The notes: generated by a model not told the origin, from the letters alone. A DNA stretch of 32,000 nucleotides from Candidatus Saccharimonadota bacterium (GCA_039920285.1 JBDSDX010000001.1:540001-572000); one strand, 5' to 3'. Positions 2 to 31,745 are shown, numbered from the stretch's first letter. Program-made: numbers and translations.

Positions 2-682
2 CGCGGTGGAGGTGTCAAACGACATCACCGTCTCATGACTCACAACCTACCAGCTGGTACCGTTGCGACTATTGAGCAGATTGAATATGACCCAAACCGT
101 AGTGCGCGTATCGCTCGTATTAAAGACCAAGATCAAAACTACCACTACGTCCTTGCTGACACAGCAATGACCGTTGGAAAAGTGATCAAGAGCGGTGCAG
201 ATGTCCCTGTTGAATCTAGCAACCGTATGCCATTGGCAAACATCCCTGTTGGTTCACAGATCTACGCAATCGAGATTAACCCAGGTAAGGGAGCCCAAAT
301 GGTTCGCTCAGCTGGGACAAAAGCTCAGTTGATGGCGAAAGAAGGCGACTACGCCCAAGTCCGTCTCCCTTCAGGTGAAGTCCGTCGATTCCGTCTCGAA
401 GCAACTGCTGCCCTCGGTATTGTTGGAAACGTCCAACACCAGAACATTAAGATCGGTTCTGCTGGTCGTAACCGACGCAAGGGTATCCGTCCATCTGTTC
501 GTGGTGTTGTTATGAACGCCGCAGATCACCCACATGGTGGTGGTGACGGTGGACGTCATGGCCCAGGTAAAGCACCACGTACACCATGGGGTCAATTGAC
601 CCTTGGGTACCGAACACGTCGACGTAAAGATGTCGCCGGACTAATTGTAAGATCACGCCACGAAGCGAAGAGGAAACGATAA
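2..682 (+). CDS. rplB: 50S ribosomal protein L2 (C-terminal part; 5' end lies upstream of the window)
   Basis: The frame is open from the window edge. The translation carries the L2 C-terminal signature ...[30 protein letters not shown]...PWG. Its stop overlaps the rpsS ATG, and its position matches the S10 operon order. Confidence 0.97.
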
Positions 683-5422: not shown

Positions 5423-5776
5423 ATGAGTAATCTGACTAAAAAACTGCTCAACCGTGCACTTCGTTCAAGTCGCGTCCGAGCAAAGATCACCGGTACAGCC
5501 GAACGACCTCGTCTCACTGTGACAATCAGTAACAAGCACGTGAGTGCTCAGCTTATTGATGATGTTGCGATGAAGACGATTGTGTCTGCAACAACTGTCG
5601 GTACGAAGCAAACTGGTTCAATGACCGAACAAGCCGCAGTTGTCGGTACGGACATTGCCAAAAAAGCTAAAAAAGCCAAGATTAACGCAATTGTCTTCGA
5701 CCGTAACGGCCGACAATATGCACAGCGACTTGCAGCACTTGCTGATGCAGCGCGCAAGGAAGGTTTGGAGTTCTAA
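5423..5776 (+). CDS. rplR: 50S ribosomal protein L18
   Basis: 117 aa with the pattern RPRL.V..SNKH..AQ.IDD.....V.A.T, ending FDR.G..Y.GR..ALAD.AR..GL.F. Confidence 0.95.
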   Translation: MSNLTKKLLNRALRSSRVRAKITGTAERPRLTVTISNKHVSAQLIDDVAMKTIVSATTVGTKQTGSMTEQAAVVGTDIAKKAKKAKINAIVFDRNGRQYAQRLAALADAARKEGLEF

Positions 5777-8982: not shown

Positions 8983-9543
8983 ATGATGGCACCCAAACAG
9001 CCGTCTCACCAGACCTTGCGGGAGCTCCGCGAGATCACTAAGCCGCTTCAAGCGATCAACCACCAGCGCGAAGCACTCATACTGAGCGTCCAGCGCCTGC
9101 GTCATGACACCATCATGATGGCAGATGGTCGCGAGGTCGGACGTTACCGTGGCGACATGACGAGAGTGCGCTCGAAGGCCAAGCTTCAGAAGAAGAAAGC
9201 CAAGGTGTTCACGGAGATCGAATGGCTCGCCAAATGCGGTGAGCTGTCGAAGAGCTTCCACTACAGCTACCCGGTCGGCCAGCGACGTGCTGCCCACATG
9301 GTCAACTACGCCATGCAGGACGGCTACCAGCTGCCCGGAGAGTGGGCTGACATCATCTGGCTTGTCCAGGGGTGGGAAGATCGCATCAACTTCCGTAACC
9401 GTTACACAGATCAGCGCGTCATCATGACGCCTGGAATGAGCACGGAGACGCGGGAGAACGGCTCGCTACCGACAATCTACTTTGAGATGGTCACCATCGA
9501 GGAGTATGAGCTTCACCGCAAGTCGGAGCACGTCGCCGCATGA
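8983..9543 (+). CDS. Hypothetical protein (186 aa), compositionally foreign; I recognise no family
   Basis: GAGGAG lies 5-6 nt upstream of ATGATG. The ORF spans the whole high-GC patch, where four hand-counted 60-nt lines gave 58-65% GC. GAG/AAG/CTG/CGC-type codons dominate, unlike the neighbouring genes. The antisense ORF 8968-9297 looks like a GC shadow. Confidence 0.6.
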   Translation: MMAPKQPSHQTLRELREITKPLQAINHQREALILSVQRLRHDTIMMADGREVGRYRGDMTRVRSKAKLQKKKAKVFTEIEWLAKCGELSKSFHYSYPVGQRRAAHMVNYAMQDGYQLPGEWADIIWLVQGWEDRINFRNRYTDQRVIMTPGMSTETRENGSLPTIYFEMVTIEEYELHRKSEHVAA

Positions 9544-24009: not shown

Positions 24010-25170
24010 TTATTTCTCGTCGAATTCGCTAATGTCGTGTGCGCGCCACGTATTCACTGCTTTTTTGTACGAAATGAGTTGAGAATAGCCCCATAGTTCC
24101 ATCCAGCGTCGAACCCAGTATCCAGCCTTGCCGGACACATAGATACCGTGCCATTCGACGTAGCCCCAGCCTTCACCAACAGGAAAGCCGCACATGACCG
24201 AGCGAGGATGAAAAGCAAACCGTGGCCGCTTTGTAATGACGCGAGAGAGGTGCTTCGCAACGTAGGTACCTTGTTGCATTGCTGGCCATGCCATGCCACT
24301 AAATTTCACTGAGTTGTTGTCACCGATCACGTACACGTGCGGAAGCGCTTCAAGGTAAGGGTTTACGTTGACCCGTCCATTCGGAGCAAGATGGAACATG
24401 TCAGCGTGAGCGTTAAAGAAAGGGTTATTGGCGACGCCAGATGTCCATATAGCCGTCGTTGTGGGTACTTGCTTACCATCAATCGTAATAAAGTCACCCT
24501 GAAGTTCACTGACTTTATGGTTCACAAGGACTTTCACCCCAATACTCTTTAATCGTTTCGAAACAATGTTAGATGCAGTTGTCGATGAACGAGGCAAAAT
24601 ACGAGGTGCAGCCTCAACCAGAGTCACTTTCGCTCTCGAATTCTTTAAACGATGAACCCTCACAAGGTAGCGGAGATAATCACTCAAAGCACCAGCAAGC
24701 TCGACGCCCGTTGGGCCGGCACCAATAACGAAATATTCCTTATCAAGTTTTCGTTCAACAACTTCCTTATTGATATGCTCCTGAAATGCATCAACTTCAG
24801 CTAGAGACTTGATACCAAATGCGTGTTCTGCGACACCGGTAATATTGAAGTATGTCGTCACAGAACCCATCGCCAGAATGAGCGTATCGTAGTGGTATTG
24901 ATTTTGTTTACTAATAACAATGCGACGCTGAGTATCAAGATTTTCAATCTTATCTTTAACTACAGTAACGTTCGGATGGTCTATAAAGATGTCATTGAGC
25001 GGGAATACTGATTCTGATTCATTACGACCAGTCGCCGTCGCATAGAGACTCGCATGGTGAAGGAAATAGGATTCATTAGAGATAAGTGTCACCTTACCAG
25101 TCTGACGCTTGGAGAGCTCCAGAGCAGCTTTGATACCAGCAAATCCGCCACCAACAATTACGATATTCAT
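24010..25170 (-). CDS. ndh: Type II NADH:quinone oxidoreductase (NDH-2)
   Basis: Starting at 25170 gives MNIVIVGGGFAGIKAA (first Rossmann GxGxxG); a second one is at GAGPTGVELAG. The longer track ORF to 25287 would run into tRNA-Trp. Confidence 0.9.
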   Translation of the reverse strand: MNIVIVGGGFAGIKAALELSKRQTGKVTLISNESYFLHHASLYATATGRNESESVFPLNDIFIDHPNVTVVKDKIENLDTQRRIVISKQNQYHYDTLILAMGSVTTYFNITGVAEHAFGIKSLAEVDAFQEHINKEVVERKLDKEYFVIGAGPTGVELAGALSDYLRYLVRVHRLKNSRAKVTLVEAAPRILPRSSTTASNIVSKRLKSIGVKVLVNHKVSELQGDFITIDGKQVPTTTAIWTSGVANNPFFNAHADMFHLAPNGRVNVNPYLEALPHVYVIGDNNSVKFSGMAWPAMQQGTYVAKHLSRVITKRPRFAFHPRSVMCGFPVGEGWGYVEWHGIYVSGKAGYWVRRWMELWGYSQLISYKKAVNTWRAHDISEFDEK

Positions 25171-25230
25171 TACGCTAATGGTATCAGGCTTATGTGAAGC
25201 GGTAAAGCACTTTCGGTAAATTCTCGTATC

Positions 25231-25239
25231 TGTTAGAAT
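25231..25239 (+). promoter_or_regulatory. Extended -10 promoter element for tRNA-Trp
   Basis: TGtTAGAAT lies 12 nt upstream of the tRNA 5' end. The -35 is weak. Confidence 0.4.
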
Positions 25240-25250
25240 GTGAAAGCTAT

Positions 25251-25325
25251 AGGGGCATAGTACAACGGTTAGTACATAGGTCTCCAAAACCTAGGATCGT
25301 GGTTCGATTCCACGTGCCCCTGCCA
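25251..25325 (+). tRNA. tRNA-Trp (anticodon CCA), CCA encoded
   Basis: Hand-folded cloverleaf:
- Acceptor AGGGGCA/TGCCCCT.
- D-arm GTAC..GTAC.
- Anticodon stem TAGGT/ACCTA with loop CTCCAAA.
- T-arm CGTGG-TTCGATT-CCACG. Confidence 0.95.
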
Positions 25326-28128: not shown

Positions 28129-28647
28129 ATGATACAGTTCCAAGCAACACTAAAAGCAATCAGTCATTCAACTATTTTGCAGTTACCTGAAGCTGCGAGT
28201 AGGAAATTACCATCTCGTGGACAAGTCTTCGTAAAGGGAACTCTTAACGGCTACGCTATTCAAGAAGTCATTGAACCAGATGGAAATATGGGTCACTGGC
28301 TCAAGTTAAACAAGCAACTACTGGATATGCTTAAGTTGAGTGTTGGCGACAACGTCACACTTGAGGTCGAACCAAGTAAAGATTGGCCAGAGCCAACAAT
28401 ACCCGCTGATTTTTCAAAGGCTTTAAAGACTGCTCCATCGAGCGTTCAGGAACTATGGCCAGCAATTACTCCCATGGCACGGTGGGAATGGATTCGTTGG
28501 GTCAGCTCAACCCATGTTGTCGATACACGAAAACGCCGCGTTGAAGTATCAATATCAAAAATGGAATCAGGCAAGCGGCGACCGTGTTGCTTTAATCTTT
28601 CGTCATGTACTGACCCCGATCTCGCAAAAAGCGGCAAACTTATCTAA
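28129..28647 (+). CDS. DUF1905 + YdeI/OmpD-associated family protein
   Basis: 172 aa. The N-terminal part has a beta-barrel-like pattern (...LP......LPSRG.V.V.GTLNG). The C-terminal part has W..ITP.AR.EWI.W......ETR.RR.......ESGKRRPCC. Both are recalled family patterns, not searched. Confidence 0.8.
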   Translation: MIQFQATLKAISHSTILQLPEAASRKLPSRGQVFVKGTLNGYAIQEVIEPDGNMGHWLKLNKQLLDMLKLSVGDNVTLEVEPSKDWPEPTIPADFSKALKTAPSSVQELWPAITPMARWEWIRWVSSTHVVDTRKRRVEVSISKMESGKRRPCCFNLSSCTDPDLAKSGKLI

Positions 28648-28678
28648 TGAGTATTTTTTCTTTTGGTATGATGGCTAC

Positions 28679-29383
28679 ATGAATAGTATTGAAACACCCC
28701 ATCCAGAAGAGAAGCACAAATCTCAACGTGCGAACTGGCTTCGTGCGGCCATATTAGGTGTTGATGACGGTATTGTCTCGACCTCAAGTATCATGCTCGG
28801 GCTTCTTGCAGCACAGGCTGATATTAAGATTGTGCTCACCACTGGCATCGCCTCTCTCGTCGCAGGTGCAATCTCGATGGCTGCAGGTGAGTATGTGTCA
28901 GTCAGTTCACAGCGCGACGCCGAACTCGCTGATATTGATATTGAACGACGCGCCTTGAAGGCTAACCCAAAAGGCGAATTGATCGAACTAGCCGATATAT
29001 ATGAAGGAAGAGGGTTATCTAAAACGCTTGCTCTAGAAGTAGCTAAAGAGTTACATAAAGTAGATGCAATTGGTAGTCATGCTAGAGATGAACTGGGTAT
29101 TAACAGTCGCATGCGTGCACACCCATTTCAAGCAGCAGGGAGCTCGGCTAGCGCCTTTGCTATTGGCTCGCTGGTCCCGTTATCTGTCGCGCTTATATTA
29201 GGTGTAACCGGCAGTCCGTTCATTGTTGCCATTTCACTCCTTTTCCTCGCTGTTTTTGGCTTCATCGGAGCAAGTGTCGGTGGAGGAAATCGCGTTATAG
29301 CCGCGGTACGCGTATTAGTAGGTGGTGGTTCCGCAATGGCAATCACTGCGCTCATCGGGCATATAATCGGTGTTAACTTGTAA
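28679..29383 (+). CDS. VIT1/CCC1-family iron/manganese transporter
   Basis: The ATG at 28679 gives ...RANWLRAAILGVDDGIVSTSSIMLG...AGAISMAAGEYVSVSSQRD, then C-terminal TM helices. The track start at 28514 overlaps the YdeI-like gene. Confidence 0.88.
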   Translation: MNSIETPHPEEKHKSQRANWLRAAILGVDDGIVSTSSIMLGLLAAQADIKIVLTTGIASLVAGAISMAAGEYVSVSSQRDAELADIDIERRALKANPKGELIELADIYEGRGLSKTLALEVAKELHKVDAIGSHARDELGINSRMRAHPFQAAGSSASAFAIGSLVPLSVALILGVTGSPFIVAISLLFLAVFGFIGASVGGGNRVIAAVRVLVGGGSAMAITALIGHIIGVNL

Positions 29384-29409: not shown

Positions 29410-29667
29410 TTACTCTCGTAAAGATTTTGGTGGTATCAAAGCAGTGTCCTCGAGCAACTCAACTCTCTGCTTGGCGACTGCATCGTCCCATGATTCACCA
29501 GATTCTTGTTCAATGATGAAAAGATTATGATCAACAAATCCTCGTCCTTCAGTAACGAGTTCTGTATATAAAATATCTTCTAATAATTTTGTGTGTAGGG
29601 TATCTAATCGTTCGCGTGCCGTTTGTTTATCCATAACCACAACTATAGCACCGTTCCTAATAAGCAT
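29410..29667 (-). CDS. Hypothetical protein (85 aa), acidic
   Basis: This is the only ORF in the interval. It is divergent from the tail-fibre-like genes and has no motif I recognise. Confidence 0.45.
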   Translation of the reverse strand: MLIRNGAIVVVMDKQTARERLDTLHTKLLEDILYTELVTEGRGFVDHNLFIIEQESGESWDDAVAKQRVELLEDTALIPPKSLRE

Positions 29668-29763
29668 ACTAGCTGGTATACTTATTTATATGCGTAAGCA
29701 TTCTGAGGATATAGGATATATGGAGATCCAGAACGCCAAAGAACTCTTCTTGAGGGTCTCTTT

Positions 29764-30270
29764 ATGAGTTTTCCCCAACGACTTCCTTTAGTTAATAGCG
29801 ACGATGGCCAATGGGGTGATATTCTTAACCAATATCTCAGTTTGCAACACTATGACACTGGGAGTGATAATGCACTCAACGGTGGTCACAAAGTCGTCAC
29901 GATTCGTCCTGGTACAACAGCAACCGGCACTGCGCCACTTAAATTCTCTTCAGGAAGTTTACTGACGACACCTGAACCAGGTGCGGTCGAGTTCTTAACT
30001 GATCAACTCTATTTCACACAAACTACTGGCTCAACTCGTAAAAAGGTTGCTATCTACGACGATACGTCAGGCGCAACTGGTGATTTATACTATCGTGATG
30101 CGAGTGGCTACTTCAAACGACTTCCAATCGGGACGAGCAGTCAAATTTTGACAGCAAACGCCGGTCTTCCCACATGGCAATCTGCGAGTGGCGTCATCAA
30201 CAATATGGATGGTGGTGCGGCATCGGCTATATATGGTGGAGCTATCGCCGTAAACGGAGGAGGTGCCTAG
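29764..30270 (+). CDS. Phage tail-fibre-like protein (small)
   Basis: 168 aa with GAGGG 8 nt upstream. An N-terminal ...DGQWGDILNQYL... and an internal APLKFSSGSLLTTPEPGAVEF..DQLYFT resemble patterns I recall from actinophage minor tail / tail-fibre proteins. It is Gly-rich at the C-terminus and has no signal peptide. Confidence 0.65.
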   Translation: MSFPQRLPLVNSDDGQWGDILNQYLSLQHYDTGSDNALNGGHKVVTIRPGTTATGTAPLKFSSGSLLTTPEPGAVEFLTDQLYFTQTTGSTRKKVAIYDDTSGATGDLYYRDASGYFKRLPIGTSSQILTANAGLPTWQSASGVINNMDGGAASAIYGGAIAVNGGGA

Positions 30271-30271
30271 T

Positions 30272-31270
30272 ATGAGTACCTTGATTCAGTTTAGGCGTGA
30301 TACCCAAGCAAACTGGGCAAGTGTGAACCCAATACTCGCACAAGGTGAATTAGGTCTCGTCACTGACACGGGCGCATACAAAATGGGTGACGGCACCAAC
30401 GCATGGAACACATTACCGTACCATGAGATCACTCCCGCAGTTCAGACACTGACATTCTCAAATCAAGTTGACCCTTCAACACCCGCGGCCGGCACAACTG
30501 TTTTATATTCACGAACGGTTGCCGGAAGATCTTTCCCTAAATACATTGGTCCATCAGGTCTGAACAGCCCTTTGCAACCAGCTATTTTCCAAAACTCACT
30601 CTGGCTGGTTCAACCGAATACAACATCATCCGTTTCTGCAATTGGTGGCGCAGTGGCGTCGGCAGGTACGCTATCAACTCCAACCCCAAACTCAACCTCA
30701 TTTGGCGTTTCGACGAACTTCTTAAGTGGTGCGGTCGCGAATAACACGGCTGGAACAAGCCAGAACATTGCACCCCTCAATACCTCATCGGGCGTCGCCA
30801 GCAATGGTGGTTTCTTTTTTGTCTGCCGTCTTTGGTACCCTGATGCGAACTACGGCTCAGGCTCAACAGGCTCACGTCATTTTATCGGCTTATCAGACCA
30901 AACCTTCACCGCAACTGTCACCTCTGATAACCCTGCTGGATCAAGAATGGGCTTTGCAATGAGCACCAACCTTGGCGAAACAACCTTCCAATTTTCGACA
31001 AAAAATGGAACTGCAGAAACACGAACCGATACAGGAGTTTCGTTAGTATCAAATAATCTTTATGACTTTTATATATTTCTTCCTGCTGGTGGCACAACCG
31101 TATCGTGGAGAATCGATAATTTATCGACTAGCACCATAACTGAAGGTGACACGACAAGTACCATCCCTGGCACCAGTACCTATCTACGTGCAGGTTTTCA
31201 ATTGGCAACGCTCACAACCGTCGCGAGAAACGTCAGAATGAAGAAAATCTACGTCGAAACGGATAATTAG
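30272..31270 (+). CDS. Phage tail-fibre / receptor-binding-like protein with an Mtd-N-like N-terminal motif
   Basis: The ATG at 30272 has GGAGGAGG 8 nt upstream. The N-terminus IQFRRDTQANWASVNPILAQGELGLVTDTGAYKMGDGTNAWNTLPY matches the conserved N-terminal module of phage tail fibres, hyaluronidases and Mtd (from memory). The C-terminal ~220 aa is Ser/Thr/Gly/Asn-rich and looks like a beta-sandwich. Confidence 0.7.
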   Translation: MSTLIQFRRDTQANWASVNPILAQGELGLVTDTGAYKMGDGTNAWNTLPYHEITPAVQTLTFSNQVDPSTPAAGTTVLYSRTVAGRSFPKYIGPSGLNSPLQPAIFQNSLWLVQPNTTSSVSAIGGAVASAGTLSTPTPNSTSFGVSTNFLSGAVANNTAGTSQNIAPLNTSSGVASNGGFFFVCRLWYPDANYGSGSTGSRHFIGLSDQTFTATVTSDNPAGSRMGFAMSTNLGETTFQFSTKNGTAETRTDTGVSLVSNNLYDFYIFLPAGGTTVSWRIDNLSTSTITEGDTTSTIPGTSTYLRAGFQLATLTTVARNVRMKKIYVETDN

Positions 31271-31271
31271 T

Positions 31272-31745
31272 ATGAAAATAGCACTTCCGATTGTCATTGT
31301 AAGTATCATCGTCATAGTTTCACTTGCAGTCGTATATGTTATTTTAAGCAAAAAAAACGTAACACCAACTCAACCAGCATCAACTAGCATTCAACAAGAA
31401 AATGTCGATGCAAAAGCATTGAAAACTGATGATAGAAACGGTGCTTACCTTGATTATTCTGACACTGTTATCGCAGATACTCCGGGTACAAAAATTCTAT
31501 TCTTTCACGCACCATGGTGTCCACAGTGTCGTGAACTAGATAAAAGCATCACAACAGACGGCATCCCAAACGGAGTCACGGTTATTAAAGTTGATTACGA
31601 CTCGCATCAAGCATTAAGGAAGAAGTACGGTGTCACTTTGCAAACGACGCTAGTCAAGGTGGACGACGCGGGTAATAAAATCTCGAGTTACGTCGCATAC
31701 GAGGAACCTCAGTTCAGCGCGGTTGAACGCGAGTTACTCAATTGA
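31272..31745 (+). CDS. Membrane-anchored thioredoxin-fold protein (CPQC active site)
   Basis: 157 aa with an N-terminal TM helix (IALPIVIVSIIVIVSLAVVYVIL) and FFHAPWCPQCREL. Confidence 0.85.
   Translation: MKIALPIVIVSIIVIVSLAVVYVILSKKNVTPTQPASTSIQQENVDAKALKTDDRNGAYLDYSDTVIADTPGTKILFFHAPWCPQCRELDKSITTDGIPNGVTVIKVDYDSHQALRKKYGVTLQTTLVKVDDAGNKISSYVAYEEPQFSAVERELLN

Follow-up and report, generated by a model that had tools for sequence, protein, structure and literature searches.

Two adjacent genes of a Candidatus Saccharimonadales bacterium, here called geneA and geneB, very probably encode a phage-type two-part fibre that belongs to the cell, is maintained by selection and is paralogous to a module associated with the operon for the Pam pilus. 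They lie in the 32,000-nucleotide stretch analysed here (the window), which comes from a 795,370-bp contig of a metagenome-assembled genome (MAG; genome GC 0.46). The parts of this 795-kb genome that we inspected were the window and two short loci, L001 and L171 (L-numbers label the loci or contigs compared, and P-numbers label proteins). We found that geneA combines a Saccharibacteria-specific fibre module at its N-terminus with a phage connector at its C-terminus, and that geneB is a tip protein of the phage tail-fibre type, in which an Mtd_N docking domain is followed by a concanavalin A (ConA)-like beta-sandwich (Table 1).

The first-pass annotation of this DNA had described two neighbouring plus-strand genes of 168 and 332 aa with tail-fibre-like sequence motifs; their positions were right, both open reading frames (ORFs) are intact, and every quoted motif was recovered in the two translations. 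The geneB ORF as listed begins with GTG at 30263 (335 aa), but the homologues favour the ATG start at 30272. Since GGAGGAGG lies inside the end of geneA and a single base separates its TAG from the ATG of geneB, the two genes are almost certainly translated as one unit, with coupled translation, as judged from their junction. An orthologous pair (L002) is present in another Saccharibacterium, in a different neighbourhood (TetR upstream, glyoxalase downstream), and comparison with it revealed saturated synonymous sites and low nonsynonymous change in both genes (pN 0.162 and pS 0.839 for geneA; pN 0.125 and pS 0.779 for geneB), with the C-terminal domain of geneB evolving faster than its N-terminus. 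Hence, geneA and geneB are under strong purifying selection, intact and functional: a pN of 0.13-0.16 against a pS of ~0.8 in intact ORFs is not what a decaying remnant would leave. Moreover, the pair sits in the core chromosome, outside any prophage. Neither phage genes, an integrase nor flanking repeats were found in the 30 kb upstream or the 2.7 kb downstream of it; no phage hallmark gene occurs in the window, in agreement with the earlier claim that capsid, portal, terminase, tape-measure and baseplate genes are missing from the flanks, and the first 2.7 kb past the window end likewise show no continuing prophage.

These observations bear directly on the possibility that the pair represents the last, functionless tail-fibre genes of a degraded prophage. 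Such an origin would agree with geneB-type genes being common in phages, with the closest relatives outside Saccharibacteria being phage genes, and with the slightly raised GC content over geneB (GC 0.494 and GC skew -0.105 for positions 30001-31000 vs GC 0.42-0.45 in the flanking kilobases), which fits foreign origin or a Gly/Ala/Ser/Thr-rich composition. However, neither ORF is truncated, their translation signals are coupled, the substitution pattern is that of constrained genes, the pair is retained in other Saccharibacteria beside different neighbours, no phage gene, integrase or flanking repeat accompanies it, and the N-terminal module of geneA was not found in viral collections (pattern search). 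We therefore regard a decayed remnant as extremely improbable, and domestication, which the first-pass annotation had put forward as an attractive hypothesis, is the better account of intact ORFs with low pN, saturated pS and conservation in other Saccharibacteria contexts.

The phage character of geneB is clear from its N-terminus. Pfam Mtd_N (PF18454) matches residues 8-45 of the 335-aa translation over profile positions 1-36/37 (E 1.9e-13, 50.5 bits vs a cut-off of 26.3), many tail-fibre, tail-spike and hyaluronidase PHROGs match the same end of the protein, and residues 3-51 of the geneB profile align to residues 7-55 of phage hyaluronidases in the PDB (E 2e-8 to 3e-7). The conserved N-terminal tail-fibre module that had been ascribed to geneB is thus real, with Mtd_N above its cut-off, and the phage-derived reading survives the Pfam and PHROG profile searches proposed as its check. 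Further along, residues 69-334 match phrog_13925 (E 1.4e-14), and an AlphaFold2 model built from 61 homologues (mean predicted local distance difference test score, pLDDT, 90.5) is all-beta from about residue 70. Foldseek searches against the PDB with this model returned legume lectins and Shewanella SO2946 at E ~1e-7 and target-normalised template-modelling (TM) scores of 0.5-0.6 (for SO2946, 2a5z: E 1.8e-7, TMt 0.61), and the best matches in BFVD are phage proteins of the same architecture, such as Q5ZGE4 of Flavobacterium phage 11b (TM 0.75/0.73), annotated as 'SO2946-like C-terminal domain'. The modelled C-terminal domain of geneB is therefore ConA-like at the level of fold. The beta-sandwich foreseen for this region is upheld by AlphaFold2 and Foldseek, though not its extent, which is about 265 aa rather than ~220 aa. 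The geneB family comprises at least 150 clusters; in its alignment (A1), three residues near the end, Y327, E329 and D331, are invariant and form a C-terminal Y-x-E-T-D.

Mtd of Bordetella phage BPP-1, the protein from which Mtd_N takes its name, forms trimers that sit at the tail-fibre ends and bind the receptor. A likeness of geneB to Mtd had been claimed, and it holds for the N-terminal domain but not for the remainder, as Mtd continues into a C-type-lectin fold with the variable region of a diversity-generating retroelement (DGR) and geneB into a ConA-like fold. There are no C-type-lectin folds among the top PDB matches of the geneB model, Mtd itself is not among the matches at E<=1 in the PDB profile search with the geneB family, and the 32-kb window contains no repeat of the geneB 3' region that could serve as a DGR template. 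Because the fold differs and the window lacks a DGR-type repeat, we conclude that geneB shares with Mtd only the N-terminal module, and we dropped the idea of a DGR for this locus; no reverse transcriptase was found among the scanned neighbours or in the 2.7 kb downstream. A similar relation holds for the streptococcal prophage hyaluronidases (HylP; 2c3f, 2yvv, 6x3m), whose first ~50 residues align with geneB and share its N-terminal PHROGs; beyond residue ~51 there is no similarity, and in place of the triple-stranded beta-helix catalytic region of HylP, geneB has a jelly-roll sandwich.

Full-length homologues of geneB reside in real phage genomes, beside portal, terminase, crAss ring-protein and tail genes, which, together with Mtd_N, the PHROG matches and the hyaluronidase alignment, bears out the proposed phage relationship. 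One such homologue accompanies portal and head genes (L006), another accompanies terminase, portal and head genes and has a tail-fibre gene directly upstream of it (L012), and a third is carried by a Mu-like prophage (L174). The closest relatives of geneB outside Saccharibacteria are encoded on crAss-like contigs (L172, L175 and L176; 65-69% identity). These three contigs have a GC content of 0.30, 0.34 and 0.38, respectively, carry CrAss_Ring_1/2 and crAss_MUZ genes, and their tips share the end of geneB, ...ARNVRMKKIYVETD; no isolated phage matches their ring protein. Phage tips of this kind (PHG11b_33 of Flavobacterium phage 11b, the members of phrog_13925 and the three crAss-like tips) consist of the same two domains, are 332-344 aa long, reach 69% identity to geneB and, like geneB, are preceded by a shaft gene ending in an NxDGG...xDGG connector. 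They differ from geneB in two respects: their upstream partner is a phage shaft or a collagen-like protein, whereas that of geneB has the Saccharibacteria-specific N-terminal module, and the window pair stands in the core chromosome without virion genes. In phage 11b (L090, 6259-7795), a 168-aa gene precedes the geneB-like one (342 aa), which gives the two the sizes of the window pair. The geneB-like gene is placed between the head-tail adaptor and the tail-completion/Neck1 gene, which is a neck-fibre-like position; the 168-aa phage protein has no detectable relation to geneA (hhalign E 0.11).

A more distant tip, 56% identical to geneB, is encoded at 8001-8999 of L177, a phage-like contig of GC 0.625 that also carries genes for an r1t-type holin, LtfC, DUF732 and Ku. 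The neighbouring tail protein on this contig matches only minor tail proteins of Mycobacterium and Gordonia phages. Cultured Saccharibacteria have Actinobacteria as their known hosts; the actinophage-like tip hints that phages and Saccharibacteria share receptor specificity for these hosts.

In contrast to geneB, geneA has no match in Pfam, PHROGs, NCBIfam or the PDB profile search. Its homologues comprise 642 clusters of 60-78% identity, and those that bear names are from Saccharibacteria/Saccharimonadales; a GTDB scan gave 195 loci with the family, almost all labelled as Saccharibacteria, Patescibacteria or unclassified MAGs, and an exhaustive profile search collected 13,691 clusters at E<=1e-3 and 272 at E<=1e-30. 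The family alignment (A2) has a mean column identity of 64%. GeneA carries the QRLPxVNxDDGxWG...NGGH... signature of the module, in which 28 positions are invariant, and is 65-71% identical to the family members that lie between a small twin-arginine translocation (Tat)-signal-like gene and the pam chaperone/pilin genes. Residues 1-~150 also form the N-terminus of proteins of 130 to ~2900 aa, many of which are long repetitive fibres, and in the equivalent genomic slot the module is fused to fibres of up to 2775 aa. The two repeat-like units of the module, residues 43-100 and 101-143, recur in tandem, in up to 39 copies, in giant proteins. In one of these, P0243 (1254 aa), the repeats give a summed match of 31.4 bits to Pfam Gp34_trimer, the trimerisation domain of T4 gp34; further giants with geneA units are P0241 (4745 aa), P0253 and P0272, and it is the 101-143 unit, 'DPLTTxGDxxYR..LxxGxxGQVLT..GLPxW', that produces the Gp34_trimer match. 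Among viruses, a pattern search of IMG/VR for the N-terminal module returned 49 pattern matches, of which 0 were confirmed, and the sole match in an isolated phage, a 1253-aa protein downstream of a central-tail-fibre-J-like gene, is weak and at the level of the repeats. Likewise, hhalign comparison of geneA with the protein encoded before the phage 11b tip and with the shaft protein of L012 revealed no relation. The last ~25 aa are of a different nature: the end of geneA, INNMDGGAASAIYGGAIAVNGGGA (NMDGG...VNGGGA), is a phage-type connector motif. Thus, the tail-fibre pattern that had been attributed to geneA is confirmed for this C-terminal tail and not for the N-terminal ~145 aa, which are specific to Saccharibacteria and match no library.

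The connector goes together with Mtd_N tips in phages and bacteria alike. Among 12 IMG/VR contigs of phages that encode a full-length geneB homologue, 11 have, directly upstream of it, an ORF that ends in N-[IV]-D-G-G...[IV]-D-G-G-x-[AP]; the ORFs with this ending, those of crAss-like phages among them, are of the collagen-like or another shaft type. Across 80 viral loci, the motif stands at the end of 25 of 6477 ORFs, 21 of which are followed by a gene starting with Mtd_N, and a connector-ending ORF precedes 13 of the 15 geneB-like genes. In 80 Saccharibacteria loci it was found at the end of only 3 of 6086 ORFs, all of them geneA-type genes directly before Mtd_N tips. Moreover, among the short proteins of the geneA family the class of C-terminal extension predicts the downstream partner without exception in our sample: the tail NNLDGG...DGGxA pairs with Mtd_N tips, and the tail GLxQQQVMAIxSMRI with 443-aa tips that have the ConA-like domain of geneB. 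A longer geneA form (232-243 aa) pairs with 700-aa partners ('B700'); a faint match of this partner to Dit_N (E 0.066) had raised the idea of a siphophage baseplate, which was dropped as no PHROG supported it. One geneA-type ORF, at 9992-10495 of L092, has only 137 aa and no connector tail, yet an Mtd_N tip follows; this could reflect a frameshift, an assembly error or a real truncation. Given the connector/tip synteny and the co-variation of tail and partner, we consider it probable that A and B are physically joined into one fibre, with the tail of geneA seated on Mtd_N.

Between the window and the pam-linked loci, geneA is 70-71% identical and geneB 35%. Neighbour-joining analysis places the window tip in a clade with its Saccharibacteria orthologues (71-81% identity; all of them have a geneA partner), and this clade is nested among phage tips; the pam-linked tips fall into other clades, one of them together with a phage. 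The tree placement and the gap between geneA and geneB identities lead us to conclude that tips have repeatedly been traded with the phage pool, while geneA was conserved as their scaffold. Repeated tip replacement of this kind resembles an arms race, and one could imagine that the pair interferes with phages, either because fibre parts in the cytoplasm mis-assemble with those of an incoming phage or because the tips mask receptors. The 65-69% identity to crAss-like tips whose shafts use the same connector, and the missing export signals, would agree with this. We nevertheless judge it very unlikely: PADLOC found no family at E<=0.01 for geneA, geneB, the divergent 85-aa ORF upstream or the related cluster proteins, the conserved module and its fusion to fibres of up to 2775 aa suit a structural appendage better than a decoy, the linkage is to pilus and Tat genes and not to defence islands, and the crAss-like phages (GC 0.30-0.38) differ in GC from this genome (0.46).

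The description of the pair as stand-alone is correct for this locus but not for the family, whose usual home adjoins the pam operon. The Pam pilus, of the donor-strand-exchange type, has been implicated in the contact of Ca. Mycosynbacter amalyticus with its Gordonia host (Troman et al., bioRxiv 10.64898/2026.03.03.709456). Of 77 loci that contain the geneA module, 59 also encode two or more families of a conserved cluster of secreted proteins, identified as pam by the NCBIfam models (CPR_Pam_pilin_C, 156 bits vs a cut-off of 55; PamR-like, 180 bits, below the equivalog cut-off). An earlier reading as a WxL/Csc surface cluster, for which Pfam WxLIP_PGBD gave sub-threshold matches only, was replaced by this assignment. 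Adjacency to pam is kept down to about 54-60% geneA identity and through many genome rearrangements. In L173, a small Tat-signal-like gene (9281-9490) is followed by A (168 aa), B (Mtd_N, 344 aa), the pam genes, a MazE-like gene and an MFS gene, which agrees with the neighbourhood described for M. amalyticus. The genome under study itself has a pam locus (L001), with a geneA paralogue (P0225, 67% identical) and a tip of the ConA type (443 aa) at its head. As the same genome thus holds a pam-linked copy elsewhere, the window pair is a second, detached cassette. In about 35 loci (e.g., L087, 12898-13623 and 13647-14306), genes for a conserved 241-aa phrog_1574/glycosyltransferase-like protein and a ~200-220-aa methyltransferase-like protein separate the first pam chaperone gene from that of the 700-aa fibre partner; the fibre or the pilus could be a substrate of these proteins.

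In one sentence, and with no analysis, the Pam report (10.64898/2026.03.03.709456) mentions that a 'tail fibre-like protein' is consistently found together with the operon; its supplement has no relevant entry. By its location, this protein may be a member of the geneA family; the window copy differs from the pam-associated module in lying away from pam, tatAC and the small gene, and in having a tip that is 35% identical to pam-linked tips and groups with those of phages. GeneA and geneB are neighbours of the pilus and not pilins, as they match none of the NCBIfam CPR_Pam models (structural components PamA/B/E/T/R and PamC/D), have no Sec signal and do not show the Ig-like donor-strand-exchange fold. 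In function, the nearest analogy may be to the tip adhesins of chaperone-usher pili (FimH, PapG), in which a lectin-type domain is likewise genomically tied to a donor-strand-exchange pilus; the Pam tip pilin PamT, as described, has no lectin domain. The analogy goes no further, since the window pair has neither pilin domain nor Sec signal, is phage-derived, and is tied to the pilus by genome position. Alternatively, the fibre could be displayed on the surface for purposes unrelated to the Pam pilus or to host recognition, such as a biofilm or particle lectin or the binding or remodelling of cell-wall glycans, the adjacency to pam being historical. The window copy is indeed not beside pam, the pam assembly model does not need the fibre (10.64898/2026.03.03.709456), and the ConA-like fold also occurs in glucanases and alginate lyases. 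On the other hand, adjacency that persists through such divergence and rearrangement, and tips that are modular and exchanged in the manner of phage receptor-binding proteins, as is typical of specificity determinants, make this explanation an unlikely one.

How such proteins would leave the cell is suggested by the genes that surround the module. In 51 of 77 loci, a gene for a protein of ~64-70 aa lies no more than 450 nt upstream of the geneA-family gene; the protein carries (S/T/D)R(K/R)xFL followed by a hydrophobic stretch, and a conserved C-terminal GFGxxKFG. This small gene is not mentioned in the Pam report (10.64898/2026.03.03.709456). Of 88 loci, 30 have tatC and 26 have tatA no more than 10 kb from the geneA gene, mostly directly upstream; by our own estimate, chance would place one given gene within 10 kb in about 2-3% of cases in a ~0.8-Mb genome. 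The order in L001 is small gene (507-716), tatC, tatA and geneA paralogue, and L091 has the small gene at 5451-5660. This linkage suggests that the signal-less fibre proteins may leave the cell as folded complexes through the Tat system, which is the weakest step of our proposal.

The lack of signal peptides in geneA and geneB, noted at first pass, is confirmed (maximal Kyte-Doolittle means over 19 residues, 0.82 and 0.87, respectively), and their N-termini have no RR motif or hydrophobic region that would mark them as Tat substrates. Together with the phage-type connector and tip, and with a genome view limited to the window and two short loci of 795 kb, this could also be read as the signature of fibres for a phage-like particle (tailocin, extracellular contractile injection system [eCIS] or gene transfer agent) or for a resident or helper phage encoded elsewhere; such fibres would leave the cell when it lyses, without any signal peptide. 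Tailocins and eCIS are known cases in which cells keep phage receptor-binding modules with swappable tips, and in this they resemble the geneA module. However, its constant neighbours in the 77 loci are pilus, glycosyltransferase-like and methyltransferase-like genes, and no sheath, tube, baseplate or capsid gene (Pfam, PHROG) accompanies it in any of them; the module is, in addition, absent from IMG/VR by pattern search, and isolated phages gave only weak, repeat-level matches. Particle fibres are therefore quite unlikely.

We thus favour a fibre owned by the cell, and propose the following arrangement. GeneA, probably a trimer, would form the proximal part of the fibre, its conserved N-terminus attaching to a conserved Saccharibacteria structure (the cell envelope or the Pam pilus) and its NMDGG...VNGGGA tail plugging into Mtd_N of a geneB trimer, whose ConA-like domain would bind a surface glycan or another ligand. 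The fibre might then, alone or in concert with the Pam pilus, serve as an exchangeable adhesin or as a means of recognising the host, and it might be exported by the Tat system, the small Tat-signal protein acting as escort. On balance we lean towards this proposal as a whole; a role in surface adhesion or host recognition is, taken by itself, a tentative suggestion from sequence. A still wider scheme appears rather doubtful to us, in which a folded geneA oligomer would hitch-hike through Tat on the ~68-aa escort, mount on the Pam pilus or envelope and carry interchangeable tips traded with phages, including those of the Actinobacteria on which the epibionts live as parasites, so that epibiont and phage would share host-receptor specificities and the window pair would be an extra tip cassette widening or changing the host range.

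Several observations weigh against our proposal. GeneA and geneB have no transmembrane segments by Kyte-Doolittle analysis, and pam, tatAC and the small Tat-signal-like gene are all missing from the window; with neither these genes nor a signal peptide or transmembrane segment, surface display is a presumption, and the role of the proteins could instead be cytoplasmic or follow release by lysis. All Pam components carry Sec signals, and the tail-fibre-like protein stands outside the assembly model (10.64898/2026.03.03.709456). The motif of the small protein reads RK in 46 cases vs RR in 13, its matches to the NCBIfam 'Tat system-associated protein' model NF038009 (E 7e-11) and to TIGR01409 are below cut-off, and it could be an accessory of the translocase rather than an escort. 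Trimerisation and the A-B joint are deduced from synteny and co-variation. The AlphaFold2 model of the geneA monomer is poor (pLDDT 65), and a Foldseek search with it returned nothing significant and was not used as evidence; as to the ligand, the ConA-like assignment of geneB is made at fold level with moderate TM scores. Finally, a keyword search of the transposon-sequencing paper and tables for Southlakia epibionticum gave no obvious orthologue or TatC, and the module may thus be absent from genetically tractable oral strains.

Table 1. Features of the geneA/geneB locus (positions in the 32,000-nucleotide window; functions assigned to the fibre parts are putative).
Feature	Position	Strand	Remarks
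geneA	29764..30270	+	168 aa, ATG start; putative proximal fibre/adaptor protein
geneA N-terminal fibre module	29764..30192	+	residues 1-143; Saccharibacteria-specific, conserved
geneA module subparts	residues 1-42, 43-100, 101-143		head (1-42); unit 1 'APLKF..GAVEF..LYFT' (43-100); unit 2 'GATGDxYYRD..LP.W' (101-143); repeat-like
geneA connector tail	30193..30267	+	residues 144-168, 'SGVINNMDGGAASAIYGGAIAVNGGGA'; predicted to dock onto geneB Mtd_N
A/B junction	30256..30274	+	GGAGGAGG at 30256-30263 in the last geneA codons, TAG 30268-30270, 1 nt, geneB ATG 30272; sequence reading
geneB	30272..31270	+	332 aa, ATG start, 'MSTLIQFRRDT'; putative distal tip protein
geneB Mtd_N domain	30284..30397	+	residues ~5-42 of the 332-aa protein; putative fibre-docking/trimerisation module; Pfam PF18454
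geneB C-terminal ConA-like (legume-lectin/SO2946-like) beta-sandwich	30470..31267	+	Foldseek, BFVD, phrog_13925; presumed ligand-binding tip
Intergenic region between the divergent 85-aa ORF and geneA	29668..29763	+	Shine-Dalgarno-like GAGGG at 29752-29756, 7 nt 5' of the ATG; sequence reading
85-aa acidic ORF, divergent from geneA	29410-29667	-	ORF only
Membrane-anchored thioredoxin gene	31272..31745	+	Pfam Thioredoxin, E 1.5e-7; starts 1 nt after the geneB stop

The immediate neighbours of the pair, an 85-aa minus-strand ORF and a thioredoxin/CcdA pair, are as the first-pass annotation described them. The 85-aa ORF has no match in Pfam, PHROG, NCBIfam or PADLOC. The promoter of geneA is presumed to lie in the intergenic region, but a scan for the sigma-70 consensus upstream of geneA showed no convincing candidate and its position was not located. 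Judging from the spacing, the thioredoxin gene is probably co-transcribed with geneB; we take it as context and not as a demonstrated part of the fibre, and its adjacency to geneB is not kept in L002. A CcdA/DsbD_TM gene lies 3' of it (positions 1167-2380 of L171 span the thioredoxin/CcdA region), and an exact-match contig of the same sample shows thioredoxin, CcdA/DsbD_TM, FKBP and MarR genes in the 2.7 kb past the window end; a 69-aa gene downstream of the window was examined and is no Tat-signal protein. A DsbA/thioredoxin-like gene is also found near the pam operon of L173, and disulphides have been reported in Pam pilins. GeneA has no cysteine and geneB only one; the link of thioredoxin/CcdA, if any, would therefore be to other envelope proteins.

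Upstream, the window encodes ribosomal proteins L2 and S3, SecY, RpoA, a class I (Trp/Tyr-type) aminoacyl-tRNA synthetase, a pseudouridine synthase and tRNAs, as well as a GH15/GH57/GT4 group, NUDIX, PAP2, DUF1905 and VIT1 proteins. Two of the called ORFs in this part overlap other features. The VIT1 ORF (28514-29383) overlaps the DUF1905/OmdA ORF (28129-28647) and its Pfam match begins only at residue 76, so the true start of VIT1 is probably downstream of the DUF1905/OmdA gene; similarly, a TTG-start oxidoreductase ORF (24010-25287) overlaps tRNA-Trp (25251-25325) and probably starts later than called.

Searches of the literature on Saccharibacteria combined with tail fibre, Mtd, WxL or surface fibres returned nothing on the geneA/geneB family, and the paper on the TM7x prophage does not mention fibres. 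Already known are the domains, the idea of domesticated phage receptor-binding proteins and, from a mention in the preprint, a tail-fibre-like neighbour of pam. Not found in the searchable literature are the two-gene architecture, the Saccharibacteria-specific anchor module, the connector/Mtd_N joint shared with phages, the repeated exchange of tips, the linkage to Tat genes and the detached cassettes.

How the ultrasmall epibionts of the candidate phyla radiation find and choose their hosts is an unsettled question, in which type IV pili and, very recently, Pam pili have been implicated; for the latter, no determinant of specificity has so far been identified. The fibre described here, with swappable lectin-like tips, is phylum-wide, selected and tied to the pam operon and to Tat genes, and offers, in the connector-Mtd_N joint, a concrete means by which its parts may be combined. 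Possibly, it helps these tiny epibionts to recognise host cells. If the tips do set host specificity, epibiont-host pairs would become predictable from sequence, shifts in host range would be explained by the exchange of cassettes with phages, and the fibre would be a rare case of a phage receptor-binding module in a pilus-associated cellular function; if, in addition, its export depends on Tat by way of the small escort, this would be an unusual secretion route for a fibre.

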